Sequence record: SRR22947727_1356 | DNA: 51,780 nucleotides | Reading direction: 5' to 3' (one strand) | Shown here: in pieces, positions 1 through 45,159 of the stretch | Layout: every line of letters begins with the position of its first letter | Numbering within the stretch: position 1 is the stretch's first letter | The notes under the pieces: generated by a model | What the model saw: the letters and a program-made list of their open reading frames with translations, nothing else | The model's database searches: none | Told to the model about the DNA's origin: nothing | Translations under genes and position numbers: made by a program

Positions 1-36
1 ACCTGAATTAGAACCTGAATTAGAACCTGAGTTAGA
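1..36. repeat. 12-bp tandem repeat (ACCTGARTTAGA x3) encoding (SNSG)n on the minus strand
   Basis: acctgaattaga acctgaattaga acctgagttaga is directly visible and may continue beyond the window edge. Confidence 0.85.
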
Positions 37-393
37 GCCAGCGTCGGCAACATCATTGTCCACCACAGAAACAGCGACCGCCGCGACAACTGCCACTGAT
101 ACCGCCACCGTAGCTGCTACTGCACCCACAGCCAAACCGGCTGTGGCGGCACCCGCAGCCGCCGCGCCAGCCGCCGCAGCACCCCCTGCCGCAGCTCCAC
201 CAGCTGCCGCCCCGGCACCAGCTCCGGCACCAGCCCCGGCAGAAGCACCAGCACCAGCAGAGGCACCACCGCTTGCGCCTGCAGAGGCGCCACCACTTGC
301 GCCGCCACTTCCGGCTGTTCCAGATCCAGCTTGCGCCCATACGCCACTAGCAATGAACACTGATATAACCGAACTAAGCAAAACGTTTTTCAT
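1..393 (-). CDS. Secreted Gly/Ala/Ser-rich protein, YjbE/GfcA-like (3' end runs off the window; not in ORF track)
   Basis: Manual translation from ATG at 393 is open to base 1: MKNVLLSSVISVFIASGVWA|QAGSGTAGSGGASGGASAGASGG...AGAAAAGAATAGLAVGAVAATVAVSVAVVAAVAVSVVDNDVADAGSNSGSNSGSNSG. It has a signal peptide, an AAGGG RBS upstream, and lies directly downstream of yjbH-yjbF on the same strand. Confidence 0.8.
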   Translation of the reverse strand, partial: MKNVLLSSVISVFIASGVWAQAGSGTAGSGGASGGASAGASGGASAGAGASAGAGAGAGAGAAAGGAAAGGAAAAGAAAAGAATAGLAVGAVAATVAVSVAVVAAVAVSVVDNDVADAGSNSGSNSGSNSG

Positions 394-434
394 AGAGAAC
401 CCTTTTCTCATTGCAATTTTGCGCCATGTATAGA

Positions 435-1115
435 TCAAATCACGCGTTCAATCAATATCAAACCGATATTTTGTCCATGCCATTGTTGAGATTTTCTAAT
501 CATGCCGTTTTTTTCAACCCAGTACGTGTTTTTAAATTGTAAACCACCACTCTCACAACTCTCACTCACACGAAGCGTTTTATAGGGTTTTTCAAAGATG
601 AAAATGGTTTCCTGACTCTCCTTTGAGAAAACACAGGAATATTCTATGATCTTGTCTTGATTGTCTGCGGCAAGGTATTTGAACAACCTACGATGATGTG
701 GCTCTCTCTTTCCGGAAATAGTTTTTTCAAGTGAATAGCTCGCAGCGCCAACATCCGCACCCATTAAATCATAATTCATGCCACGGGTGCCAATAAGCAT
801 CCCGTTTTGAGTGGTCACTGTTCTCCCGTCTGCGCTTAACCATACTTCGTTTAAAGTGCTTCCAGGAAAAGCTGAAAGTGTTGCAATTTGATTTTCATCT
901 AAGATTTCTATTAATATAAGAGGAATATTTGACTCATCAATCATTGAGCGAGTAATGACTTTCCTTGGGTCAATCCGTTCATTTACTTCGTTCTTGTTAA
1001 AAATTAACTTTAATTGCTCTACGACTAACATGTCTTGCGATGGTTCTATTTTTGAACTGCAGGCGGCGAACAGAAGCAAAATGGAGCCCAAACAAAATCC
1101 CCTCTTAAGCTTCAT
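435..1115 (-). CDS. YjbF/GfcB family lipoprotein (group 4 capsule)
   Basis: Lipobox LLFAAC; typical C-terminus (VSESC..FKNTYWV..IRKSQQW); ATG at 1115 overlaps the yjbH stop (ATGA). Confidence 0.8.
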   Translation of the reverse strand: MKLKRGFCLGSILLLFAACSSKIEPSQDMLVVEQLKLIFNKNEVNERIDPRKVITRSMIDESNIPLILIEILDENQIATLSAFPGSTLNEVWLSADGRTVTTQNGMLIGTRGMNYDLMGADVGAASYSLEKTISGKREPHHRRLFKYLAADNQDKIIEYSCVFSKESQETIFIFEKPYKTLRVSESCESGGLQFKNTYWVEKNGMIRKSQQWHGQNIGLILIERVI

Positions 1116-3196
1116 TTCCATAATCGTCCAGCCTCATGATAAATTGCATTTTTATCTTTATTGAACAGATATCTGTGGAGCTTATAAGGAGTGTGTACTT
1201 TAGCACCTCCGTCGCGGGTCATAACGTTAAATTCAATTTTTGATGTCGTCCTGTACGGTGATCCAATACTCCAATCTAGAGGTATCTCCACGAATATTCC
1301 TTTATCATATGAGCCTTCTCCAAACTTCTCAAAAGGCACATCTGTAACCGTCGCATAGGCGCCCATTTTCCAACCATTTCCAAATTTTCGCGCCACGCGC
1401 AAAGTGTACCCTCGATCGCCAGCCAAATATTGCCCGGCATCCAATTGTGTCATAAAACCGTTTTTGAAAAAGTAGTAGGCCGACAAGTGACCTGTTGTGA
1501 CTTGATAATTTTGTAGACCCAAGAGCATGTCAAAATTTCGCTGTTGCACTTGGCTAAGTTCGATACCAATACCAAGTGAGCTTGATATTGGCTTCCACAA
1601 TATTTCGCCCGAAACACCAGCAAACATTTTTTCTAAATAGCCAGCAGTCAATTTTCCATAGACGCTTGGCATTATCTTATTTACTTTGGTAATCGTTAAT
1701 TGCTCAATGCCAGGATCACCATCCCGCCCATAAATGTCGTGATCACTGCGCACGTGAGGCAAAACCGAATCTGATTGTCTCAATATTTTATCAAAGCTAC
1801 CAGCGACCGACTTACGAAATCTTCCATCAATATAAAATCCAGACCCCAGAGTGTATTGAGTAAAAAGTTCTGCGCCCACGTCCCAGCGGATAGGAGCGAG
1901 TGGGTCAAAAAGCGAATATTCAACGTATGGCCCTACAGCCCAGCTAAATTTTTTCGATTCAGATTGATCAAACCCTAAAGCGTTACTATCGCGGAATTTT
2001 ACTGTGTCCACAAATTTTTCTGATGGTTGTGCCGAAACCACAGAATCAATTAATTGATTTCGGTTGATTTCTGCCGATAATATAACAAGATCATCCTCTA
2101 TAAACTCTATATAGAAACTATCAAAATTATCGCTTAAATATCGCGATGCTGTTCGTGAAGCGCGACCTAACGCCTGAGCTGTGGATCGATATTTTTGATT
2201 AACAAGCTGTAATTGAGGGGGGGTTTGTTCCAAATTTAAACTTAACAAATTAAAACCGTCCGCCTTGAACACAGATTTCAGCACAGTTTCATTGGTCGAT
2301 TCCAGATAAAATGGCGAACCTTTCAAGACTTTTTGCCGTAAGGGAATAGGCGCAAGTTCCCGACCCGGCCCGTTTGGCGGATCTTTGGGGTCCATCACAA
2401 GATGCGCAGATAGAGCAATTTTATCCCCATGCAAAAAGCTGGATTGTAAGAAATAACCCTTACCAGAATTCCAGGTTAATCCGTAATTCCACGGTGTCTG
2501 ATGCTCAAGATAGGACGTTTCTCGGTTATATCGGTCAGAGGAATATTCAAATTTTGCTGTGAACCCTTTGCCCAGATGCCAAGCCAAACCCCCGAAAGCA
2601 GCCGTGTCACCTTGAAACCATTCGGTTGCTTCCAGCTCTCCGCCGACTCCAGAATTTCGTCTAGCGCGGGTTTTAAAACTCTGGTCAATTTGCCCAAGTG
2701 GAGATTCGAACCCGCCATAAGTGGCCAGCCGCCCGAAGCCCAAACCGGCAGTGACTTCAACGGGGCCAATATTTTTTGTGCCCACAACGTATTCGCCCGT
2801 ATACCAACCGGTTCCGATAAAATCATTTAAGCCAATGGCGAAAGCCGGCATATATTGACCTTCATCAACGGCGCGAAACCGCAGATCAAAACTGCGATCA
2901 TGATTAGAGTAACCACCGGCTTCATTCCCATTTCTTCCATGGGCTGAATAGCGAAAGCTGGCTGATAGTCTGGGTAAGATTTGCGCGGTTAAACTGGTGC
3001 GTCTGTCCCCATCAAAACCGCTTTGGCTGAGTATAAGCCGCCCGTCAGAATCTGAAGCAGCTGTTGGCATATCGATCAATCCAATTGTGCCGTAGCTGGT
3101 ATAGGATTGCGTGTCTGCTGAAAGCAAATTGGGCAATAAGCCAATTGACGCAATGGTGTAAAAAAGTTTAAAAATGCGTCTTAAATTAGCCATCAT
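1112..3196 (-). CDS. YjbH/GfcD family outer-membrane exopolysaccharide/capsule protein
   Basis: 694 aa with signal peptide; motifs YGTIGLIDMPTA, DRSFD, GYLEKMFAGVSGE, GQYLAGDRG, FGEGSYDKG, TRDGG are typical of YjbH. Confidence 0.9.
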   Translation of the reverse strand: MMANLRRIFKLFYTIASIGLLPNLLSADTQSYTSYGTIGLIDMPTAASDSDGRLILSQSGFDGDRRTSLTAQILPRLSASFRYSAHGRNGNEAGGYSNHDRSFDLRFRAVDEGQYMPAFAIGLNDFIGTGWYTGEYVVGTKNIGPVEVTAGLGFGRLATYGGFESPLGQIDQSFKTRARRNSGVGGELEATEWFQGDTAAFGGLAWHLGKGFTAKFEYSSDRYNRETSYLEHQTPWNYGLTWNSGKGYFLQSSFLHGDKIALSAHLVMDPKDPPNGPGRELAPIPLRQKVLKGSPFYLESTNETVLKSVFKADGFNLLSLNLEQTPPQLQLVNQKYRSTAQALGRASRTASRYLSDNFDSFYIEFIEDDLVILSAEINRNQLIDSVVSAQPSEKFVDTVKFRDSNALGFDQSESKKFSWAVGPYVEYSLFDPLAPIRWDVGAELFTQYTLGSGFYIDGRFRKSVAGSFDKILRQSDSVLPHVRSDHDIYGRDGDPGIEQLTITKVNKIMPSVYGKLTAGYLEKMFAGVSGEILWKPISSSLGIGIELSQVQQRNFDMLLGLQNYQVTTGHLSAYYFFKNGFMTQLDAGQYLAGDRGYTLRVARKFGNGWKMGAYATVTDVPFEKFGEGSYDKGIFVEIPLDWSIGSPYRTTSKIEFNVMTRDGGAKVHTPYKLHRYLFNKDKNAIYHEAGRLWK

Positions 3197-3296
3197 TGCC
3201 TCAAATTTATGCAGGGATCGGTAACATTAATTTACCTCCTCTACAATAATCCTTTTTACTTTTTGATCACAAACCGATCCCATCAAAGCTATGATA

Positions 3297-3851
3297 TCAA
3301 AGGTGATTTGCTAAGATTTCATTTATAAAAACATGGCTTGCATGGGCCAAATTATCCTTCCAGGCGCTGGGCGAGTTTTCATCTGCTTGGTCCGATACGT
3401 ATTTAAAACAATAAAAATGGATACCTTCCATCTGTGCCAGCTTTGCCATGGCAAACGCCTCCATATCCACAAGATCTGTTTGCAGTTCAGGCGGTGCCGT
3501 CACAAAACTATCGCCAGTTCCGCAAGACAGGCCATGCCCCTGCGCAGAAATGTAAGGCGCTTCTTCGAAAGGGGTTTGCCCCAAGGCAAATCCCATATCG
3601 CGGGCATCCATATCGCGTTGGAAGAATTGTGTTACCTCTAGTAAGCCGCTTAATTCTGGGTTTAACGCCCCTGCAGTGCCGAAGTTTATTAAATTCATTG
3701 GTTTATAGCGCGCCACATATTCGCTGCCTTTCAGCGCAGCATTCACTTTTCCAACGCCTGTATAAGCTACGTTCCAGCTTGGTATCATCTCATTTGGCAG
3801 CTCTGCTTCTAAAGCAACCAATATTAAGGTGTTTTTCGGATCAAACCGCAC
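3297..3851 (-). CDS. MTA/SAH nucleosidase-like protein (PNP_UDP_1 family)
   Basis: Motifs TGVGKVNAA, NFGTAG, TGDSFV, VDMEAFA, KYVSDQAD. Confidence 0.8.
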   Translation of the reverse strand: MRFDPKNTLILVALEAELPNEMIPSWNVAYTGVGKVNAALKGSEYVARYKPMNLINFGTAGALNPELSGLLEVTQFFQRDMDARDMGFALGQTPFEEAPYISAQGHGLSCGTGDSFVTAPPELQTDLVDMEAFAMAKLAQMEGIHFYCFKYVSDQADENSPSAWKDNLAHASHVFINEILANHL

Positions 3852-4044
3852 GATGCTCTCCGCTAATTGTTCATTCTATATCCAGCTCATTCTACTGGCG
3901 TTCAAAGCTTTGCGAAAGCCGCTTTGAAAGATCCAATATTTTCGCGCTGAAACATGCGTTATTCGTTTGACCATGGGCTGTTGCCTCCATAGGTTCGCGC
4001 ACAGAAAACGGGCACCACTTAGTTTAAAGCGCGGGGTATATATT

Positions 4045-35743: not shown

Positions 35744-36640
35744 TTAGCGCGTTTTCAGCCCGTTTTCCCGCGCTACAAAATCTACCAAATGGGGCACGTA
35801 ATCCTCTGGGCCATCGCCACCCATGGCCATGGCGCGCGCAAAACTACTTTTCGCGGCATTTCCAATTGGATTTGCAATGCTTGCCTCATTGGCCATGCTT
35901 TCAAGATAGCGCAGATCTTTGAGCGCGTTGGTCATGGTGAATTTATGGGCCTCACGATTGCCATCTAGCGCGTAACCCATAAAGGTTTGATAAAACCCAC
36001 AATCCATCCGGCTACCGCGGATCACGCTGTCAAAGCGCTTGGCATCAATTCCCATTTTAGCCCCTAAGGCCAGCGCTTCGGAATACATGGCGGCATAGCC
36101 CAGCGATAGAAAATTATTTAGCAATTTCATACGGTGGCCATCGCCAACCGCGCCGATATGCACGAGCGTTGCAGCCCAGCTTTCGATCACTGGTTTGATC
36201 CGCGCAAAAACCGGCTGATCGGCGCCCACCATCGCAGATAGCGCGCCCTCTTCTGCTTGCACCGGCGTGCCCCCTAACGGGGCATCCACCATATGAATGC
36301 GCTTTGATTTCAAATTTTCTGCTAGTTTTAGGGTGGAGGTGGGGTCGGATGTTGAGCAATCGATGATAACGGCGTTTTCTGACAGATTAGGGGTGAGTTC
36401 CGCGATAATCTGTTCGACCTGAGGCGAACCTGGGGCACAGATGAATACCAGCGTTGAGCCTTTGGCCAGCTCTTCTAGGCTGCCGGCTTCTTGCGCGCCC
36501 AGCGACACCAGATTTTCAACCGGCACGCGGTTTTTATGCGCGATTACGGTCACAGGATATCCCGCGCGTAAAATATTTTTGGCCATGCCATGGCCCATCA
36601 GGCCCACGCCGATAAATCCAATTTTTTCGTTTTGCTGCAT
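35744..36640 (-). CDS. NAD(P)-dependent oxidoreductase, beta-hydroxyacid dehydrogenase family
   Basis: GFIGVGLMGHGMA, DCSTS, DAPLGG, MKLLNN. Confidence 0.9.
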   Translation of the reverse strand: MQQNEKIGFIGVGLMGHGMAKNILRAGYPVTVIAHKNRVPVENLVSLGAQEAGSLEELAKGSTLVFICAPGSPQVEQIIAELTPNLSENAVIIDCSTSDPTSTLKLAENLKSKRIHMVDAPLGGTPVQAEEGALSAMVGADQPVFARIKPVIESWAATLVHIGAVGDGHRMKLLNNFLSLGYAAMYSEALALGAKMGIDAKRFDSVIRGSRMDCGFYQTFMGYALDGNREAHKFTMTNALKDLRYLESMANEASIANPIGNAAKSSFARAMAMGGDGPEDYVPHLVDFVARENGLKTR

Positions 36641-36785
36641 GCCAACCTCTTTTCTGAAATTTTATGTTTGCATTAATCGTTAAATCAGGTTGCATCGCAA
36701 GGGCTTCTTACGCCTAAAGGCGATTGCCTTTGCCCCTGTTTATGGGGTTTACGGACAGTATACCCCTTAAGTGTTGTGACTCGCC

Positions 36786-36815
36786 AAAAAAAAGAGACGC
36801 TATTTCTAGCGTCTC
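36786..36815 (-). terminator. Rho-independent terminator of the candidate sRNA
   Basis: Perfect 9-bp stem, GAAA tetraloop, 8 U's. Confidence 0.85.
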
Positions 36816-36884
36816 GAGATACCGAATAATCTGGGAGGATATATTTTCGGTTTTTACGATCTGGGAGGAGGAAGACCGTACTCT
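36786..36884 (-). ncRNA. Candidate trans-acting sRNA with two anti-SD loops (cuckoo/CcsR-, AbcR- or MmgR-like)
   Basis: Minus strand: hairpin TACGGTC-TTCCTCCTCCCA-GATCGTA, hairpin ACCGAAAAT-ATATCCTCCCAG-ATTATTCGGT, then terminator GAGACGCTA-GAAA-TAGCGTCTC-T8. A -10-like TATGGT lies just upstream. The 5' end is approximate. Confidence 0.8.
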
Positions 36885-36898
36885 ATGGCTACCATACT

Positions 36899-36942
36899 TT
36901 TCTGCACCGCAGAAATACTTATTTTGAATTGCTGCTATGCAG
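36899..36942. promoter_or_regulatory. Two CTGC-N3-GCAG palindromes (PhaR/AniA-type operator) upstream of the sRNA
   Basis: CTGCACCGCAG at 36902-36912 (extended TTTCTGC..GCAGAAA) and CTGCTATGCAG at 36932-36942, 30 bp apart. A third copy lies at 37070-37080. Confidence 0.5.
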
Positions 36943-37147
36943 AAAAATCATAGCTCATACATAATCATCCGTGGTTTTGTGCAGATAGGGGAAGGAATGC
37001 GTGAATTTTATGCAGCGAAAACTTTTATCTGGGTATGTGCGAATTTAGCGCGCAAGCCTTCGGGCGGATCTGCTGCGCAGATCCTGGCTGGGGTACCGAA
37101 TCGCACCCTATTTTCGGACGCACCATAATGGCCCAGCCCCCCACTTT

Positions 37148-38200
37148 TTAGGTGATGAGGTATAAAGAATTGAGCGGGTGCTTGATATTAATTTTCTGCA
37201 CCTCAGAAAAGCCGGCCTCGGCGCAGAGGTTGCGCAACACAGAATCGGATAGACCCACCGTTCCCATACCTTCTCCGCCCTGCCACATTGAGGTGGTCAT
37301 ACAAAAATGTAGACTGATGCCCAATTTAAACACGCCATACGGGCCTGAATTATCAACTGGATCTTCTGTGGCTTCGATATCCATCAGCAAAAACATCCCA
37401 TCCTGGGCCATAGAATGTTTGAGGGTTCTTAAGCCAAGCCCCGGGTTTGGCAAATCGTGAATTAAATCAAACGTGGCGACAATATCATATTTGCCCGGGC
37501 TGCCTTCATCCATATTCCAATGTTTAAATGTGATATTACGGTCAACGCCAGCCTCTTTTGCGTTGACGCCGGCCTGTTCTATATTTGGCAAGAATGCATC
37601 ATAGCCAATAAATTCTGACTCGGGAAATAGCTTCGCCAACTCAATCGTGGACCTGCCCGTACCGCAGCCAAAATCGGCAAATCTGGCGCCTTTTTTTAAG
37701 CGCTGAGTCAACGCTGGGATATGGGGCAACCAATCTTTTACCAAGAAATTACGATAGCGCGCGCAGCCCGTGTGATCCAGCGCCTGCCAAAGCGCTGGCG
37801 GATAATCTTCAAACCCGACGCCGCCACCAGATTTGAAGGCCTCGCGCAGCTTTTCATAGGGCAATAATGCGCTGTTCAGCAATTTAAAGGCACCATATTG
37901 GGCAAAGCGGCCGCCGTCTTCCACCAATAGCTGTGCTTGATCTGGGCTTAGCCAGGCTTCGCGCGTGGCTTTATCAAACATCACATAGCCGCTGAGCACG
38001 ATCCCGTGCAGCCATTCGCGAACATAACGTTCGTTTAACTTCAGGCGCGCTGCCAGTTGCGCTGAGGTAGAGCGCCCGTGTGTGTACAAATCTTTAAAAA
38101 GCCCCAGTTCAATGCCAAGACTGCACAGCCGCACTGAGACGGCCCCCGCCATATCCCTTCCGGCTTGTTCCAACAGGGCTTTGGGTTTTGTATCGCTCAT
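37148..38200 (-). CDS. Class I SAM-dependent methyltransferase with N-terminal wHTH (Rv2258c-like)
   Basis: ELGLF..ERYVREWL N-domain; DFGCGTG; FDLIHDL; HFCMTTS; AGF. Confidence 0.85.
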   Translation of the reverse strand: MSDTKPKALLEQAGRDMAGAVSVRLCSLGIELGLFKDLYTHGRSTSAQLAARLKLNERYVREWLHGIVLSGYVMFDKATREAWLSPDQAQLLVEDGGRFAQYGAFKLLNSALLPYEKLREAFKSGGGVGFEDYPPALWQALDHTGCARYRNFLVKDWLPHIPALTQRLKKGARFADFGCGTGRSTIELAKLFPESEFIGYDAFLPNIEQAGVNAKEAGVDRNITFKHWNMDEGSPGKYDIVATFDLIHDLPNPGLGLRTLKHSMAQDGMFLLMDIEATEDPVDNSGPYGVFKLGISLHFCMTTSMWQGGEGMGTVGLSDSVLRNLCAEAGFSEVQKINIKHPLNSLYLIT

Positions 38201-39475: not shown

Positions 39476-40867
39476 TTACAAAGACGCTAAAAACTTGGAC
39501 ACTTCTTGTTGAAACACTGGCCATCCGGCATCTTGTTCCAAAATAAGATGGTTTGTTGAGTCAAGCGGCACAAAGCGGGCATTGGGCATTTTATCTGCCA
39601 TTATCTGAGATTGATCCATTGGTACGCGTTGATCGCCGCGGCTATGCATGATCAATGTTGGCAGGGTGATCTGGTCTAAGCGGTTGGTCACATCAATTTC
39701 GGCATTCACCCGAGAGATTGCGGCCGCATTTTCTGCGCTGGTGCTCAGTTGCATCAACCGATCAAACGCATCTTTTTCCGCCTGGTTCGAATTGGGAATC
39801 ATAGTGTTTGCAAAAAACTGCCGGAAGGCCGGGATATCAGAGTCCCACCCGGTTTGAATCATCTGAATTTCCAAGTCAGTTTGCGATGGGTTGGCGGATG
39901 GTCGCTTATTGGCGCCTTGCGCAAACCCGCCTAAGAAAATTAAACCTTTGACGCGCTCGGGATGGCGATATGCAAATTCAATCGCCGAGGCGCAGCCTTG
40001 CGAAACACCAAAGAGCACGCATTTTTCATCTTGAATGGTGTTTGAGACCGCCATGATATCATCCACAAACGCGTCAAATGATATTGTTTCCGGGTGGCGC
40101 TCTGACAGCCCATTACCGCGTTGATCAAAGCGCAGCAATTGATGCTCAGAAGAAAGGTTTTCGAAAATATGGCGCCATAACGGGCTGCGCCAATCAGCAT
40201 CCAGATGTGTTACAAAATTTGGCGATTTTAAAAGCACCGGGCCCCGCCCCAAACTGGCCATGGCAATTGCGCAGCCATCGGCACTTGTACAATAGCTGAT
40301 TTGCTGATCGAGCTGTTTTCCCAAAATTGCGCTGCGCGGATGGCTCGGATTAAAATCTGGCGCGCTCATAAAGCATGCAATTGGACGGTCTATATTTTTA
40401 AGCCGTTGAAGACCTTGGGCATCAAAGGCCAGTTGCGCCTGCGTTGACATTTTGCCGAGGCAGTGCTCAGAGGTGCAGATAGATCCCGGTTTTGAAATAC
40501 TTTCCAACCGCGAGGCGATATTGACGGAAGATCCGAAAACATCCCCTGCCAATTCTATAACTGGTCCATGATGCAGCCCAATCCGATACACGAAAACATC
40601 GCTGTTGGGATCTTCATCGCAGAAGGCTTTCACCCCGCTTAGCAGCGCTGTTGCAAAATCAAACCCGTCTTGAGCAGCCTCAAAAAGGCATAAAAACCCA
40701 TCCCCGGTGGTTTTAATCAAGCGTCCGTTATAGCGGGTTAAAAGCGGATGAAGCAGCCTAGTATGTAGGGTTTGTTGGCGGGTGATGACGCGGTGTTCAT
40801 CCCTCTCAACCAGCCGCGAGAAGCCAACAATATCCGAAAATAAAACGGTTTTTTCCTGCGTGTCCAT
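39476..40867 (-). CDS. Class III adenylate/guanylate cyclase fused to a C-terminal alpha/beta hydrolase
   Basis: Cyclase: FSDIVGF, KTTGDG, VNIASRLE. Hydrolase: FDQRGNG, GVSQG, HSRGD, NH. Confidence 0.85.
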   Translation of the reverse strand: MDTQEKTVLFSDIVGFSRLVERDEHRVITRQQTLHTRLLHPLLTRYNGRLIKTTGDGFLCLFEAAQDGFDFATALLSGVKAFCDEDPNSDVFVYRIGLHHGPVIELAGDVFGSSVNIASRLESISKPGSICTSEHCLGKMSTQAQLAFDAQGLQRLKNIDRPIACFMSAPDFNPSHPRSAILGKQLDQQISYCTSADGCAIAMASLGRGPVLLKSPNFVTHLDADWRSPLWRHIFENLSSEHQLLRFDQRGNGLSERHPETISFDAFVDDIMAVSNTIQDEKCVLFGVSQGCASAIEFAYRHPERVKGLIFLGGFAQGANKRPSANPSQTDLEIQMIQTGWDSDIPAFRQFFANTMIPNSNQAEKDAFDRLMQLSTSAENAAAISRVNAEIDVTNRLDQITLPTLIMHSRGDQRVPMDQSQIMADKMPNARFVPLDSTNHLILEQDAGWPVFQQEVSKFLASL

Positions 40868-40959
40868 ATTACCCTACAGAGTTATGTTATGGGGCAAGCG
40901 CTGGTGCATTTGGCTGTTTGTCACCAGCTTTTGCGGCATATGCCTGCTATCGTGAAAAT

Positions 40960-41937
40960 TTAGACAACATTTTCTTCCGGTTGCGGTTCTGAAAGTTCAT
41001 CAATGATCTTTTTAAGGGTTTCCAATTCTTCCAGATCCAGCGGATGTTTCGTAAGCTTTAGCTGAAAATTCTCACCTTCAAAATTCTTTGTTTCAGCGCG
41101 AGACGTATCACTAATATCAACTTCATAGGCGATCACACCGCGCTCTAACCCTTTCAATTCAAGCTGTTGGGGGGCGTCAAAGCTAAAATAGTCTTTCACT
41201 TGAAAATAGGTTTCCTCAGAGACCAATATTCCCGATGGCATCGCGGCGCTTTCCAAACGTGAGGCCAAATTAACTGCAGCGCCCACCACGGTATAATCAA
41301 GCCGGTCTTCACTGCCGAAATTGCCCACGGTGCAATATCCGGTATTGATCCCAACGCGGATTTCCAAATCTTTTTTTAAGCCAAAATGTTTGCTCCAATA
41401 ACCCCATAACTCGGCCATTCGTTGTTGCATTTCAACCGCCATCGCTACGCATCTTCGGGCATCTTCCTCAATTCCGAAGCTTTCCGGATCGCCAAAGAAA
41501 ATCATGATCGCATCACCGATATATTTATCAATTGTCGCGCCATGTTTCAGCGCGATCTGCGACATTTCGTTTAAATAAAAATTTAATAACGCGGTAAGCT
41601 CTTCGGATTCCAATTTGTCAGATATGGCTGTGAAATTTACAATATCAGAGAAAAACACAGTGATTTTTTTACGGTAGCTTTTTACCTCGACATTCTGCTT
41701 GCCGCTAAAGATCGATTCGTAAATTTGGGGCGAAAGATATTTTGCCAATTGCCCCGATACGTCTTCCATTTGCTGGGTTTTCGACTGCGCCTCAGCCTTT
41801 GCGTCTTCGGCAACCTTTTTTTGTTTTTCCAGCTGGGTTGCCAATGACTTACGCAAATTGGCTTCTAAGCGTAGGCGTGAAAGTTCCTTTTTCAGATCTT
41901 TCAATTCTGTTTCTTGGTCTTTGGGCGTTTCAGTCAC
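40960..41937 (-). CDS. Class III adenylate cyclase with N-terminal coiled coil
   Basis: FSDIVNF, DKYIGD, GNFGS..RLDYT, VNLASRLE; heptad-rich N-terminus. Confidence 0.9.
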   Translation of the reverse strand: MTETPKDQETELKDLKKELSRLRLEANLRKSLATQLEKQKKVAEDAKAEAQSKTQQMEDVSGQLAKYLSPQIYESIFSGKQNVEVKSYRKKITVFFSDIVNFTAISDKLESEELTALLNFYLNEMSQIALKHGATIDKYIGDAIMIFFGDPESFGIEEDARRCVAMAVEMQQRMAELWGYWSKHFGLKKDLEIRVGINTGYCTVGNFGSEDRLDYTVVGAAVNLASRLESAAMPSGILVSEETYFQVKDYFSFDAPQQLELKGLERGVIAYEVDISDTSRAETKNFEGENFQLKLTKHPLDLEELETLKKIIDELSEPQPEENVV

Positions 41938-42399
41938 AGATTCTTTCCTCGCACCAGGGTTTTAAATTGGGCCAAAGCTGGAATGGTTATATACATTGAT
42001 TTTGCGGCTTTACGGCTTTGGTTTCACAACAGTATTCAGCAAGTCGAAGGTTGTGACAACATTCTAATTGTTCGTTTTGACAAACAGACAAGAATATTGA
42101 TGAAAAGACGAAAATTAATCAGCCGTCACGGAATAATAATTCAATCACTTTACCGATATTTTGCCTGAGATCAGCGGGAATTGTTCGGCCTTAGAGAAAC
42201 CACGTTTCCCCGCTCTTGACTCTGAAAAAGTATTTTTAACAATTTAAACCAATTTTTTAAAAATCTTTTGCTGAGTTTTGGTTTTCTTTGATTGGATATG
42301 ACCCAAGGGAATTTGGTTTCCCCATAGACAGGTTAAAATAATCTTCGTTAATCTAGATCTTAAAACGTGGGTGACGTTTGTAATGCGAAAACAGGCGGA

Positions 42400-45159
42400 A
42401 TGAATAAGATGAATTCTTTAGAACAATCAGATTTGAACGCAGTTTTAATTGAAAGTTTGGACACTCTTCCAAGCGGCGTATGCGTTTGGACAGAAGATGA
42501 TCGCCTGGTTTTCGTAAATCGATTTTTCAACGAACTTCAAAAAGAGGTTGGGGTGTCTCTCGAACCGGGCATCTCACGCTTAGAAGTTGTGCAACAAAAT
42601 ATTGATTGTGGATTTTTAAAGTTACCTCCCGATTTAGATATTGAGGCCTATCTGCGGCAGAGTAAGGCCGATATGTATGCCCAAGATGGGGGCTCGCGGA
42701 TCGAGCTGCCCCTGCGCGATGGCGGGGTACTGCTTTTGACCAATAAGCCTTTGAGCTCGGGCAATTACCTGCAGCTCTATACCGATATCACCACGCTTAA
42801 AAAGCATGAGGCCGAGCTAGAAGATAAAGAGCGGCGTTATGTTGGGGTAACGCATGCGCTGAATGCATTTGTCTTCGAGTGGAATATTGAAAATGGCCAG
42901 ACCAGCTTTTCAATCCCCGAAGGCGTTGGGCCGGCAGCTGAAAAAAATATGAGCAGGCTGCAAATGGATCGTTTGGATGCTGTGTTTGAAGAAGATCGTG
43001 CGGCGTATAAATCCGCGATGATCGCGCATTTTAAAAAGCAAACCCCGCTATTTTCATGCGATCACCGAATCCGATCGGATACAGGCCAATTGAATTGGTA
43101 CCGCACACGCGGCAAAGCCCTTTGGAATGAACAGGGGCGTGCGGTCAAATTCTATGGGTTGGTTGAAAATATCGATGATCAAAAGAAAATACAGCTGCGC
43201 ATGGCAAATATCGAAAAACGCTCGCAGGATGTGTTGAACAGTATTTCAGCCGGGATTATGGTCTGGGATGCCAAGGATCATCTGGTCTGGGTGAATAAGT
43301 TTTTTGATCGCTTCGGCGTGCCGCTTGAACCAGGGCAACCCTATATTAACGAAACTGGAAAGCTTGTTGATGGGGGCATTTTTTCTTTAGATGAAGGGGT
43401 TGATAAGCAAGAATTCTTAAAAGACCGAGTGGCGCAACGCCAGGCGTTGACCGGAACGGCTATAAATTTGCTGCCAAGGATGGCAGATGGGTCGCATCTT
43501 CAAATCACCAGTAAACGCCTCGAAGATGGCGGCATGGTGCAAGTGTTTGTAGATGTGAGTGATTTGACCAACCGTGAAGAAGAGCTGAATAATTTGGTGG
43601 AAGAGCTCAACACAGCCAAACAAGCGGCGGATGCGGCCAACCAAACGAAAAGTCAGTTTTTGGCCAATATGAGCCATGAATTGCGCACTCCATTAAACGC
43701 CATTATTGGCCTTACTGAAATGTTGAAGGAAGATTGTGTTGATGATGGTTTGGAGGATTTTATCGAGCCGCTTGACCGTGTCTTTAGCGCCGGCAAGCAT
43801 TTGCTGACGCTGATCAATGATGTTCTAGACCTATCAAAAATTGAGGCGGGCAAAGTCGAGTTATATAATGAAACATTCGAATTAGAGCCTTTGCTGCATG
43901 GCGTGATTCAAACCACCCAAACGCTGGTCGAGCAAAATAATAATGAAATTGCTTTAACTTTCTTGGAGTCGATCGATGAGGTGACAAATGATCAAACGCG
44001 GATAAAGCAGATTTTTCTGAATTTGATTTCCAACGCCACCAAATTTACCGAAAATGGCCAAATATCTTTGACCGTCAGCCGGCAATCCACGCCGCAAGGC
44101 GATTTGGTCAAAGTGGATGTTGCCGATACTGGTATTGGCATGGATGAAGAACAGGTGGGCCGTTTGTTCAATGCTTTTGTACAAGCCGACAGTTCGACCA
44201 CCCGCAAATATGGCGGAACCGGCTTGGGGCTCACCATTTCAAAGCAGCTTGCGCAGCTGATGGGGGGTGATGTCAGCGTGCAGAGCGAAAAGGGCACAGG
44301 CACGGTATTCACCGCAAGTTTCGCGTTGAACAATGCCGGGCATATGCATACCGAAAACGCCAGCGCTGAACCTTTGATAACGCGGGTGATCCCCGGCGGT
44401 GAACCAACGGGTAAGAAAGTGCTTATCATCGATGATGATCCAACGATCAGTGCGTTGATGCAGCGGCAACTAGTCAAAAACGGGTATGCGGTGCTTATCG
44501 CCAGATCGGGCAAGGAAGGCCTGTCTTTGGCCAAAATCCACCAGCCCGATGTGATCACCTTGGATATTTTGATGCCAGAGATTGACGGATGGTCAACGCT
44601 TCGAGCGTTGAAGGCCGATCCCGAAAGTCGTCATATCCCAGTGATTATGGCGTCAATTTTGGATGAAAAAAACAAAGGTTTTGCCTTGGGTGCGGCAGAT
44701 TTTCTATCCAAGCCGATCGAGCGGGATTATCTTATTTCTTCGGTGCAACGGCTTATCGGCCAGAAAAAAGCCGCAACCATCTGCGTGATCGAAGATGATC
44801 AAGACCTGCGCTTTACCGTGAAAGAAATCCTAGAAAAAACCGGCGCGACAGTGCTTGAAGCGGGCCATGGGAAACAGGCATTTTCTGTCTTGGAAAACCA
44901 CAATGAACTGCCCGATTTGATTTTGCTTGATCTGTTGATGCCCGTGATGAACGGGTTTGAGTTTCTGCAAAAGCTGCAGGCAACCAAGTTTAAATCAACT
45001 CCGGTTTTGGTGTTAACGGGTGCCGATCTAAGTTCTGAAGAGCGCAAAATTTTATCGCAGGAAACCTTGCGCGTGATTGAAAAAAATACCGAAAGCGTGG
45101 CGCTTATTGCCAATGACATCGCGCAAGCGATCGAAACAATCAGCGGGGCGGTGCGCTGA
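42400..45159 (+). CDS. Cytoplasmic PAS-domain hybrid histidine kinase with two receiver domains
   Basis: Three PAS-like domains; H-box FLANMSHELRTPLN; N box NLISNATKF; DTGIG, GGTGLGL; REC domains IIDDD/TLDILMP and VIEDD/LLDLLMP; no TM segment. Start 42367, 42400 or 42409. Confidence 0.9.
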   Translation: MNKMNSLEQSDLNAVLIESLDTLPSGVCVWTEDDRLVFVNRFFNELQKEVGVSLEPGISRLEVVQQNIDCGFLKLPPDLDIEAYLRQSKADMYAQDGGSRIELPLRDGGVLLLTNKPLSSGNYLQLYTDITTLKKHEAELEDKERRYVGVTHALNAFVFEWNIENGQTSFSIPEGVGPAAEKNMSRLQMDRLDAVFEEDRAAYKSAMIAHFKKQTPLFSCDHRIRSDTGQLNWYRTRGKALWNEQGRAVKFYGLVENIDDQKKIQLRMANIEKRSQDVLNSISAGIMVWDAKDHLVWVNKFFDRFGVPLEPGQPYINETGKLVDGGIFSLDEGVDKQEFLKDRVAQRQALTGTAINLLPRMADGSHLQITSKRLEDGGMVQVFVDVSDLTNREEELNNLVEELNTAKQAADAANQTKSQFLANMSHELRTPLNAIIGLTEMLKEDCVDDGLEDFIEPLDRVFSAGKHLLTLINDVLDLSKIEAGKVELYNETFELEPLLHGVIQTTQTLVEQNNNEIALTFLESIDEVTNDQTRIKQIFLNLISNATKFTENGQISLTVSRQSTPQGDLVKVDVADTGIGMDEEQVGRLFNAFVQADSSTTRKYGGTGLGLTISKQLAQLMGGDVSVQSEKGTGTVFTASFALNNAGHMHTENASAEPLITRVIPGGEPTGKKVLIIDDDPTISALMQRQLVKNGYAVLIARSGKEGLSLAKIHQPDVITLDILMPEIDGWSTLRALKADPESRHIPVIMASILDEKNKGFALGAADFLSKPIERDYLISSVQRLIGQKKAATICVIEDDQDLRFTVKEILEKTGATVLEAGHGKQAFSVLENHNELPDLILLDLLMPVMNGFEFLQKLQATKFKSTPVLVLTGADLSSEERKILSQETLRVIEKNTESVALIANDIAQAIETISGAVR

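Follow-up and report, generated by a model that had tools for sequence, protein, structure and literature searches.

A predicted stand-alone cuckoo-type small RNA with PhaR-type boxes in its putative promoter

AbcR1 and AbcR2 (ar15) are alphaproteobacterial small RNAs (sRNAs) of the Hfq type with C-rich loops, and they repress many mRNAs for periplasmic solute-binding proteins. Another family, the cuckoo RNAs, is defined in excerpts of PMC4615179 by two to four adjacent hairpins, each 24-50 nt long and containing a helix of 6 bp or more; linkers do not exceed 10 nt, and the loops, 9-27 nt in size, carry CCUCCUCCC or a variant from an IUPAC set. Its members were described in 31 Rhodobacteraceae genomes, in most cases as tandem units of two hairpins that follow a DUF1127 gene. 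The widespread cuckoo/CcsR/NfeR1 RNAs are known to respond to heat or oxidative stress through RpoHI/II and to nitrogen or redox state through NtrC and LsrB. Here we describe a predicted sRNA gene on the minus strand of a 51,780-nucleotide stretch from sequence record SRR22947727_1356 (the whole stretch is called the window below), which is built like a cuckoo RNA and whose promoter region carries boxes of the type bound by PhaR, a regulator tied to polyhydroxybutyrate (PHB) storage.

For comparison with this promoter region several published regulator sites are at hand, all given here after excerpts of the cited texts. The NfeR1 promoter of Sinorhizobium meliloti has an LsrB motif TGCA-N6-GCAT at -72 to -57 and an NtrC site TGC-N11-GCA (PMC10746234). 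PhaR recognizes CTGCNNNGCAG in Rhodobacter sphaeroides (PMC12542648), and its footprints in Bradyrhizobium diazoefficiens contain TGCRNYGCASMA, with two sites placed 6 bp either side of the -35 element of phaP1 (PMC6201568). In S. meliloti the PhaR site has a YGCR-N-YGCR core with AT-rich arms, and at phaP1 and phaP2 there are two such sites, one on either side of the -35 element; a further PhaR site, confirmed by electrophoretic mobility shift assay, lies in the promoter of the sRNA gene mmgR (PMC12542648). The mmgR promoter is under AniA/PhaR repression, with a dyad located between its -35 and -10 elements (PMC8401924, PMC12542648).

The RNA element and its copies

An initial annotation, made from the letters of the window, had proposed an independent, terminator-ended sRNA of ~100 nt, and all three of its parts were found again on the minus strand at the same coordinates (Table 1). 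Both loops hold the anti-Shine-Dalgarno (anti-SD) stretches claimed for them: an exact CCUCCUCCC stands at 36863-36871 inside the loop of hairpin 1 (HP1) and UCCUCCCAG at 36831-36839 within that of hairpin 2 (HP2), the two hairpins being separated by a short A-rich linker of 3-5 nt. The GAAA-loop terminator with its U8 run is also reported by a terminator scan (stem at 36794-36815). From its stem to the closest stop codon upstream on the minus strand, that of gene 37148-38200, the distance is 333 nt, for which ~330 nt had been given. When folded with ViennaRNA, positions 36780-36900 (121 nt) form exactly three hairpins at -34.2 kcal/mol (z = -3.28, equalled by 1 of 200 shuffles), HP1 being lengthened to 8 bp with a 10-nt loop, so that the fold check named in the annotation came out positive. 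The 5' end of the sRNA probably lies at ~36883-36886, and the last base of the U8 run would be its 3' end. Position 36872 in the 5' flank of the HP1 loop, outside the CCUCCUCCC motif, is a strain polymorphism, being U in the window and A in the two closest genomes described next as well as in contigs of the runs X6 and X10.

In a BLAST-level search of 41 relatives, full-length matches were found only in G001, the nearest genome compared (76% of sampled words in common with the window), and in G002 from the same genus; the matches in 16 other genomes cover ~15-28 nt (mostly 15-25, E 0.002-1) and were taken as chance. Alignment of the spacer from the window, G001 and G002 shows only two differing positions from HP1 to the U-run, whereas the ~20 nt directly upstream of this core have diverged (heavily in G002) and a block further upstream is conserved again. 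This combination of a near-invariant core, a diverged flank and a conserved upstream block is the pattern expected for an RNA gene with its promoter.

Covariance models built from three copies (R1) and from eight copies (R2) score the window sRNA at 124 and 102.7 bits, respectively. In the model scans 27 candidates per genome were scored, and the match counts are therefore lower bounds. The window has one copy, but the annotation's 'single-copy' is not supported, as G001 has at least four stand-alone copies, A-D (E 5.7e-18 to 1.3e-5), as well as a DUF1127-linked cuckoo locus. Three copies are present in G002, two in G114 from another genus and one in G169, a congener of G114. A weak fifth candidate of G001 (E, at E 0.049) has a single anti-SD hairpin. 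Among 151 genera represented by one genome each, R1 matched 5 at E <= 0.1 and R2 at least 4 at E <= 0.01; some of the R1 matches (L052, L054, L057) consist of the terminator alone. In G107 a plain hairpin, a UCUCCUCCCA-loop hairpin and a terminator follow each other downstream of an ORF (open reading frame; L058, 1501-1589), possibly as a one-module relative of the 3'-untranslated-region (3'-UTR) type.

Twelve copies were aligned for an analysis of covariation, and although this alignment was fitted to the model and is thus biased towards structure, 96.9% of its cells are paired versus 70.0% in shuffles and 39-47% with slid partners. Changes on both sides were found at 21 of the 24 base pairs (6/6 in HP1, 7/9 in HP2 and 8/9 in the terminator), values that none of 500 shuffles attains, and each copy gives the same fold on its own. 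The loops stay constant: that of HP1 reads CUCCUCCC(A/G) or a near variant (UUCCUCCC in copy D, CUUCUCCC in G169), and that of HP2 contains UCCUCCCAG in 11 of the 12 copies, the exception being the cuckoo RNA of G084 (L059) with UCCUCCCAA. The covariation in relatives that the annotation had named as a check is thus present. We give next to no credence to the idea that the locus has no gene of its own and combines chance hairpins with a distant terminator of the upstream methyltransferase gene. It is true that CCTCCTCCC is no commoner than in the reversed control (7 vs 11 in G001, 8 vs 12 in G002) and that no Rfam family reaches its cut-off, but the distance to the upstream stop codon, the invariant core beside diverged flanks, the compensatory changes in multiple paralogs and a conserved promoter motif upstream all speak for a gene, which with high probability is real.

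Parts of the stretch are contained in eight runs recorded as RNA. Four RNA libraries from four studies were examined, all as assembled contigs without ends, strand or level, so that DNA carry-over and read-through are indistinguishable. The contigs cover the sRNA; one of them ends at 36886, which gives a weak hint at the 5' end only, and one spans the whole 1.3 kb. A gap in X12 (36790-36869) and contig breaks at 36870 coincide with the strain polymorphism at 36872 and prove nothing. Two contigs (X10, 36554-36886, and X13, 36273-36870) run from the sRNA into the downstream dehydrogenase gene, and as this gene is co-oriented and starts 146 nt downstream, the hairpins and the terminator might form a cis-acting leader or attenuator that controls read-through into it. 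We regard this as very improbable: contigs are not proof of single transcripts, the terminator is strong (9 bp, U8), and at 80 loci with dehydrogenase homologues in other genomes the element was not found upstream, the sole match having 20.2 bits (E 0.13). Moreover, in 5 of the 7 contexts in which copies occur, the closest ORF downstream has a convergent orientation, and the RNA is therefore not a leader there. A trans-acting translational repressor, as proposed in the annotation, is the best reading, and the appearance of an independent sRNA with two anti-SD loops seems borne out.

For the placement into a family, Rfam was used with its gathering scores, which are 58.8 bits for ar14 (RF02344) and 41 bits for suhB/mmgR (RF00519). 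At gathering thresholds the whole window gives no match, and the top matches below them (mir-3036, sroB, DdR6, MESTIT1) were rejected as chance or terminator-driven. The ar14 model scores the window copy at 18.0 bits (E 0.45), the G002 copy at 27.8 bits and the paralogs at 23.6-30 bits; weak as this match is, it aligns both anti-SD loops in register. By the RF00519 model the window copy is not reported at E <= 10, and for the paralogs B, C and D, where it is the best model or tied with ar14 (27-30 bits), the alignments rest on the terminator with the anti-SD motif out of register. The RNA is thus not a member of ar14 or suhB/mmgR, as it stays below the thresholds of both, and the Rfam check suggested in the annotation yielded no family and a weak ar14 likeness.

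Nevertheless, published structural rules speak against the statement that no family could be assigned and point to a two-hairpin cuckoo-type RNA. HP1 (24-26 nt, helix of 6-8 bp), HP2 (31 nt, 9 bp and one bulge) and the linker all have the sizes given for cuckoo RNAs. While HP1 carries the exact CCUCCUCCC, the HP2 loop with AUCCUCCC agrees at 7 of 9 positions, as judged against the core motif and not against the published variant set, and the terminator hairpin is without the motif. Over 36641-37147 there are 10 ORFs of at least 20 aa, none of which is on the minus strand, directly upstream and of DUF1127 size (no Pfam scan was included), so a DUF1127 neighbour as in the CIN1 arrangement was not found. 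Elsewhere in G001 two anti-SD hairpins follow a canonical DUF1127 (CcaF1-like) gene (Pfam, 50 bits; L151, 1497-1820; L034, 1500-1613), and R2 also matches, at 37.2 bits (E 2.5e-4), a canonical cuckoo RNA of G084 that has three hairpins and is linked to DUF1127. Judged by its sequence, the window sRNA is built like a cuckoo RNA of the CcsR/NfeR1/ar14 kind and is not a CcsR (CIN1) locus, in agreement with the kinship to alphaproteobacterial CCUCCUCCC-loop sRNAs named in the annotation. Most likely it represents a two-module variant of cuckoo RNAs that stands alone and belongs to a set of several paralogs.

PhaR-type boxes in the promoter region

Upstream of the RNA lie two TGC-rich boxes (Table 1). 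Box 2 contains CTGCGGTGCAG at 36902-36912, an exact CTGC-N3-GCAG as published for the Rhodobacter PhaR operator, and is the only exact occurrence of the Bradyrhizobium consensus TGCRNYGCASMA in the window; it ends 5 nt upstream of a -10-like hexamer, for which G002 has TATGTT and other copies have TATGCA, TATGCT or TATTGC. Box 1 includes a second exact CTGC-N3-GCAG and overlaps an element TGAT-N6-GCAT at 36937-36950, which resembles the T-N11-A boxes of LysR-type transcriptional regulators (LTTR). CTGC-N3-GCAG occurs four times in the 51.8-kb window (1.04 expected), and three of the four are in this 507-bp spacer.

The same layout is shared by the copies A and C of G001, both copies of G114 (G114a and G114b) and the copy of G169: a TGC-rich Box 1 (CTGCATAGCAGCA(A/T)T...) is followed after ~12-19 nt by the palindromic Box 2 (CTTCTGC-N3-GCAG), then by a -10-like TATG(G/C/T)N or TATTGC, and HP1 begins ~10-15 nt further on. 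In copy C a good -35, TTGACC, stands in the stretch separating the two boxes; related TGCA-N9-TGCA elements are present in copy B. Allowing up to 3 mismatches, the Box-1 17-mer was found 17 times in G001, 18 in G002, 14 in G114 and 13 in G169 versus 1, 0, 3 and 2 times in the control. In G001 the bipartite motif also stands upstream of the DUF1127-cuckoo locus and directly upstream of a Phasin_2 gene (33 bits, cut-off 24.9), which is followed by phaR (PHB_acc_N, PF07879, 98.7 bits). Loci resembling phaP-phaR with the motif are present in G002, G114 and G169, and phaR was found in all four genomes searched. As Box 2 corresponds exactly to published PhaR motifs and the same bipartite arrangement is found at phaP-phaR, we read it as a PhaR operator, and the sequence suggests that this PhaR-type operator lies within the putative core promoter.

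A different regulator is conceivable for the same cuckoo-type sRNA: a LysR activator similar to LsrB/VtlR at Box 1 and/or NtrC could bind the TGC-rich boxes as in NfeR1, and the RNA would then report nitrogen or redox state and not PHB. The element overlapping Box 1 differs at two positions from the LsrB motif TGCA-N6-GCAT, of which G114a, G114b and three DUF1127 promoters have exact copies. In G001 the Box 1 that lies ~100 nt before the start codon of the DUF1127 gene includes such an exact copy, and this promoter motif is also present in G002 (L158) and G084 (L059); furthermore, Box 1 has a conserved CATAGC centre at the sRNA and DUF1127 loci, unlike the box of phaP. We nevertheless hold this to be rather unlikely, with Box 2 being exact for three independently published PhaR motifs, placed as in the mmgR and phaP promoters, and with the bipartite arrangement recurring at phaP-phaR.

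Other assignments considered by eye for 36899-36915 were a sigma-54 promoter, a lux-box or Fur/Irr-type site and a plus-strand terminator; they were rejected for misfits in spacing or orientation and because no plus-strand gene ends there. The third CTGC-N3-GCAG of the spacer is part of a perfect 8-bp palindrome (GGATCTGC-GCA-GCAGATCC, 37066-37084) located ~190 nt before the sRNA; several words similar to a TGCA(C/T)AA half-site occur in the stretch from there to Box 1, with conservation of this region in G001 and, to a lesser degree, in G002. CTGC-N3-GCAG was also seen shortly upstream of cuckoo hairpins in further genera, namely in front of a one-hairpin sRNA with terminator in G183 (L220) and of arrays of at least four CCUCCUCCC hairpins in G292 (L238), G173 (L232) and G228 (L228). 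At phasin genes of four other Rhodobacteraceae genera two PhaR-type boxes flank a -35-like element, and the leader forms a hairpin with a CUCCUCCC loop before the start codon (~1500-1720 in L219 of G370, L230 of G387, L243 of G241 and L236 of G308). This hairpin is like a cuckoo module in cis and might sequester the SD sequence of the phasin gene itself or serve as a decoy for the sRNAs.

Table 1. Features of the sRNA locus in the window and related copies in G001 (coordinates of the copies refer to the locus named).
Feature	Coordinates	Strand	Description or basis
Predicted sRNA, ~101 nt	36786..36886	minus	sequence, fold, covariance-model matches
Hairpin 1 (HP1)	36855..36880	minus	stem ACGGUC/GAUCGU, 6 bp; loop UUCCUCCUCCCA
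Hairpin 2 (HP2)	36821..36851	minus	stem ACCGAAAAU/AUU(A)UUCGGU, 9 bp, one A bulged; loop AUAUCCUCCCAG
Intrinsic terminator	36786..36815	minus	perfect 9-bp stem GAGACGCUA-GAAA-UAGCGUCUC at 36794-36815; U8 at 36786-36793
-10-like hexamer TATGGT	36891..36896	minus	candidate, by eye from aligned promoters
Box 2, palindrome TTTCTGCGGTGCAGAAA	36899..36915	minus	PhaR-type operator motif, upstream of the -10-like hexamer
Box 1, composite TGC-rich element	36925..36950	minus	CTGCATAGCAG at 36932-36942, exact CTGC-N3-GCAG
Third CTGC-N3-GCAG site	37070..37080	minus	inside palindrome GGATCTGCGCAGCAGATCC at 37066-37084
Upstream neighbour, winged helix-turn-helix and S-adenosylmethionine-methyltransferase protein	37148..38200	minus	Pfam HTH_65, Methyltransf_31; separate from the sRNA
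Downstream neighbour, 3-hydroxyisobutyrate-dehydrogenase family	35744..36640	minus	Pfam NAD_binding_2, NAD_binding_11; starts 146 nt past the U-run
Paralog B (G001)	L031 1506-1603	plus	
Paralog C (G001)	L056 1501-1599	minus	
Paralog D (G001)	L062 1501-1601	plus	
Weak candidate E (G001)	L066 1501-1608	plus	

Of the window as a whole, positions 1-4000 and 40001-44000 have a lower G+C content (0.44-0.46) than the remainder (0.49-0.56), possibly owing to islands or AT-rich genes.

Predicted targets and proposed circuit

The complement of the HP2 loop followed by a start codon (CTGGGAGGA-N2-12-ATG) occurs 14, 10, 8 and 6 times in four genomes and not once in the reversed control, although 7 of these 38 sites are the sRNA genes' own antisense or double counts. 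Of 20 ORFs with a length of 50 aa or more that follow these sites, 17 encode periplasmic solute-binding proteins (families TctC, DctP, SBP_bac_1/6/8, Peripla_BP_4 and NMT1), the TctC, DctP and SBP_bac_1 genes among them having leaders of the CUGGGAGGA type. Inside the window TGGGAGGA occurs only as the sRNA's own antisense, and there is thus no candidate target in it. As a control, GGGAGGA without the CU prefix was searched in G001, and 9 of 18 ORFs were also solute-binding proteins. The CU prefix is found on 38 of 173 GGGAGGA sites (31 of 166 without the seven mentioned above), where ~6% would be expected. As far as can be told from these genome sequences, it is chiefly binding-protein genes that have the strongest SD sites, and extended complementarity adds a modest further signal. 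We infer that the loops may pair with the ribosome-binding sites of solute-binding-protein mRNAs and repress them. The predicted targets agree with those of NfeR1, which in excerpts of PMC7143759 encode transport proteins, and with S. meliloti in rich medium, where, according to part of the published account, 30% of the proteins 'activated' by PhaR are related to transport.

Taken together, we slightly favour the view that the window encodes a stand-alone, trans-acting sRNA of the cuckoo type which is gated by PhaR and damps the synthesis of solute-binding proteins. The sRNA would be transcribed from ~36883-36886 by a sigma-70-type promoter with Box 2 (CTGCGGTGCAG) in the -35/-10 spacer and Box 1 just upstream of the -35 position. 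Without PHB granules PhaR would occupy the boxes and the gene would be off, whereas under carbon excess, as PHB builds up, PhaR would be drawn to the granules and the sRNA would be made. Its loops would then pair with strong GGGAGGA-type sites, mostly those of periplasmic solute-binding proteins of ATP-binding cassette (ABC), tripartite ATP-independent periplasmic (TRAP) and tripartite tricarboxylate (TTT) transporters, and lower their translation, probably with Hfq. The net result would be a reduced uptake capacity while carbon is already being stored. An LsrB-like LysR regulator may be a further or alternative binder of Box 1, comparable to the situation at the NfeR1 promoter.

Several points weigh against this view. 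The contigs define no transcript ends, and the discrete ~100-nt RNA remains predicted; the RNA also lies below the gathering scores of both Rfam families, ar14 and suhB/mmgR. The -35 of the window copy is poor, and since a sigma-70 consensus scan finds no promoter here, we infer the -10 from the aligned copies. Regarding the regulator, Box 1 is one position off the S. meliloti PhaR core YGCRNYGCR (TGCATAGCA), and its binding protein is ambiguous as it also fits an LTTR box and the NtrC-type TGC-N11-GCA. Paralog D has no such boxes and is probably regulated differently. A family-wide scan for a PhaR box followed by CTCCTCCC gave 33 matches in 29 of 401 genomes versus ~34 in the reversed control (our own tally), so that no enrichment is seen overall, and only a subset, including cases in other genera on inspection, looks real. 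Most of the target signal reflects strong SD sites as such, because solute-binding-protein genes carry GGGAGGA regardless of the prefix (50% vs 85%). Finally, RNAduplex gives -21.0 for the phaP initiation region of G001, which is within the background of -19.7 +/- 4.4 (n = 33); since intramolecular structure is ignored by the method, this value says little.

In another reading the RNA is the roseobacter counterpart of MmgR (ar8, suhB/mmgR), is repressed by PhaR and mainly limits phasin synthesis and PHB granule load, with no broad control of transporters. Such a counterpart would share the promoter logic, that is a dyad between -35 and -10 and repression by PhaR, and both the RF00519 scores of paralogs B, C and D and the CUCCUCCC hairpin of the phaP leader in four other genera would fit. 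We consider it quite improbable, given that all suhB/mmgR scores are below 41, that the window copy is not reported by this model at all, that the alignments are terminator-based and out of register at the anti-SD motif, and that the phaP duplex does not stand out from its background.

Whether the preferred reading, a PhaR-gated sRNA acting on solute-binding proteins, extends beyond this locus is more doubtful. Tentatively, cuckoo-type anti-SD sRNAs of roseobacters, and probably of Alphaproteobacteria more widely, might form a post-transcriptional arm of the PhaR/PHB regulon that throttles the translation of solute-binding proteins. If so, titration of PhaR by PHB granules would lift repression from the DUF1127-cuckoo operon and from the paralogous sRNAs. 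This would also explain why PhaR represses SMc02051 of S. meliloti and why many transporters seem to be 'activated' by PhaR in this organism. SMc02051, a small protein described as strongly PhaR-repressed, is a DUF1127/CcaF1 orthologue adjoining NfeR cuckoo RNAs (PMC8034643), so the pairing of PhaR and cuckoo RNAs may be old and widespread. The paper that describes this repression mentions neither 'NfeR1' nor 'DUF1127', a preprint on NfeR1 targets does not mention PhaR or PHB, and in the literature searched no statement on a link between PhaR and cuckoo sRNAs was found. Carbon-storage status would thereby be added to the inputs of cuckoo sRNAs, and PhaR would gain an indirect route to transporter synthesis. 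For marine roseobacters, as processors of dissolved organic carbon with many ABC, TRAP and TTT uptake systems in their genomes, this would be a testable circuit linking PHB storage to uptake.

Comparison with described small RNAs

The AbcR1/AbcR2 sRNAs resemble the window sRNA in their C-rich loops and in their solute-binding-protein targets, which are predicted here, but belong to another sequence family with other loop motifs, and no Rfam match to them was obtained at E <= 10. With MmgR/ar8 (RF00519) it has a similar size and an anti-SD stretch in common, and in the promoter the dyad between -35 and -10, the repression by AniA/PhaR and the tie to PHB (excerpts of PMC8401924 and PMC12542648) would be shared as well. 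MmgR, however, as compared here from reviews and the Rfam consensus, consists of a single small hairpin and a terminator plus an unpaired CUCCC stretch, and for the window sRNA no link to a phasin mRNA was seen.

Closer in architecture are cuckoo/CcsR1-4 of R. sphaeroides (RSs0680a-d; excerpts of Reinkensmeier & Giegerich 2015, PMC4615179, and Grutzner et al. 2021, PMC8034643), which share the two adjacent, rule-sized hairpins with a CCUCCUCCC loop, and the family as a whole has the same hypervariable stems, constant loops and several copies per genome. In contrast to them, the window sRNA lies outside the DUF1127 neighbourhood (CIN1) in which the published Rhodobacteraceae clusters sit, and its HP2 loop is a 7/9 variant of the motif. 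The CcsR RNAs arise by processing of a tandem array in a 3' UTR and are driven from an RpoHI/RpoHII promoter, whereas the window sRNA has its own promoter region with PhaR-type boxes and a separate, motif-free terminator.

NfeR1/ar14 (RF02344) of S. meliloti is similar in being a stand-alone gene of the sigma-70 type with anti-SD hairpin loops, in the conserved TGC-rich motif at ~-65, where NfeR1 has its LsrB box (PMC10746234, in excerpt), and in the kind of target, which for NfeR1 is mostly transport-protein mRNAs (PMC7143759 and PMC10746234, in excerpt) and for the window sRNA is predicted. It differs in that ar14 has three hairpins including a terminator whose loop also bears the motif, and the window copy reaches 18 of the 58.8 bits of this family. 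Compared with all of these systems the sRNA gene is an ordinary addition to a known family, and the PhaR-type operator at the putative promoter of a stand-alone cuckoo-type sRNA is the new element here.

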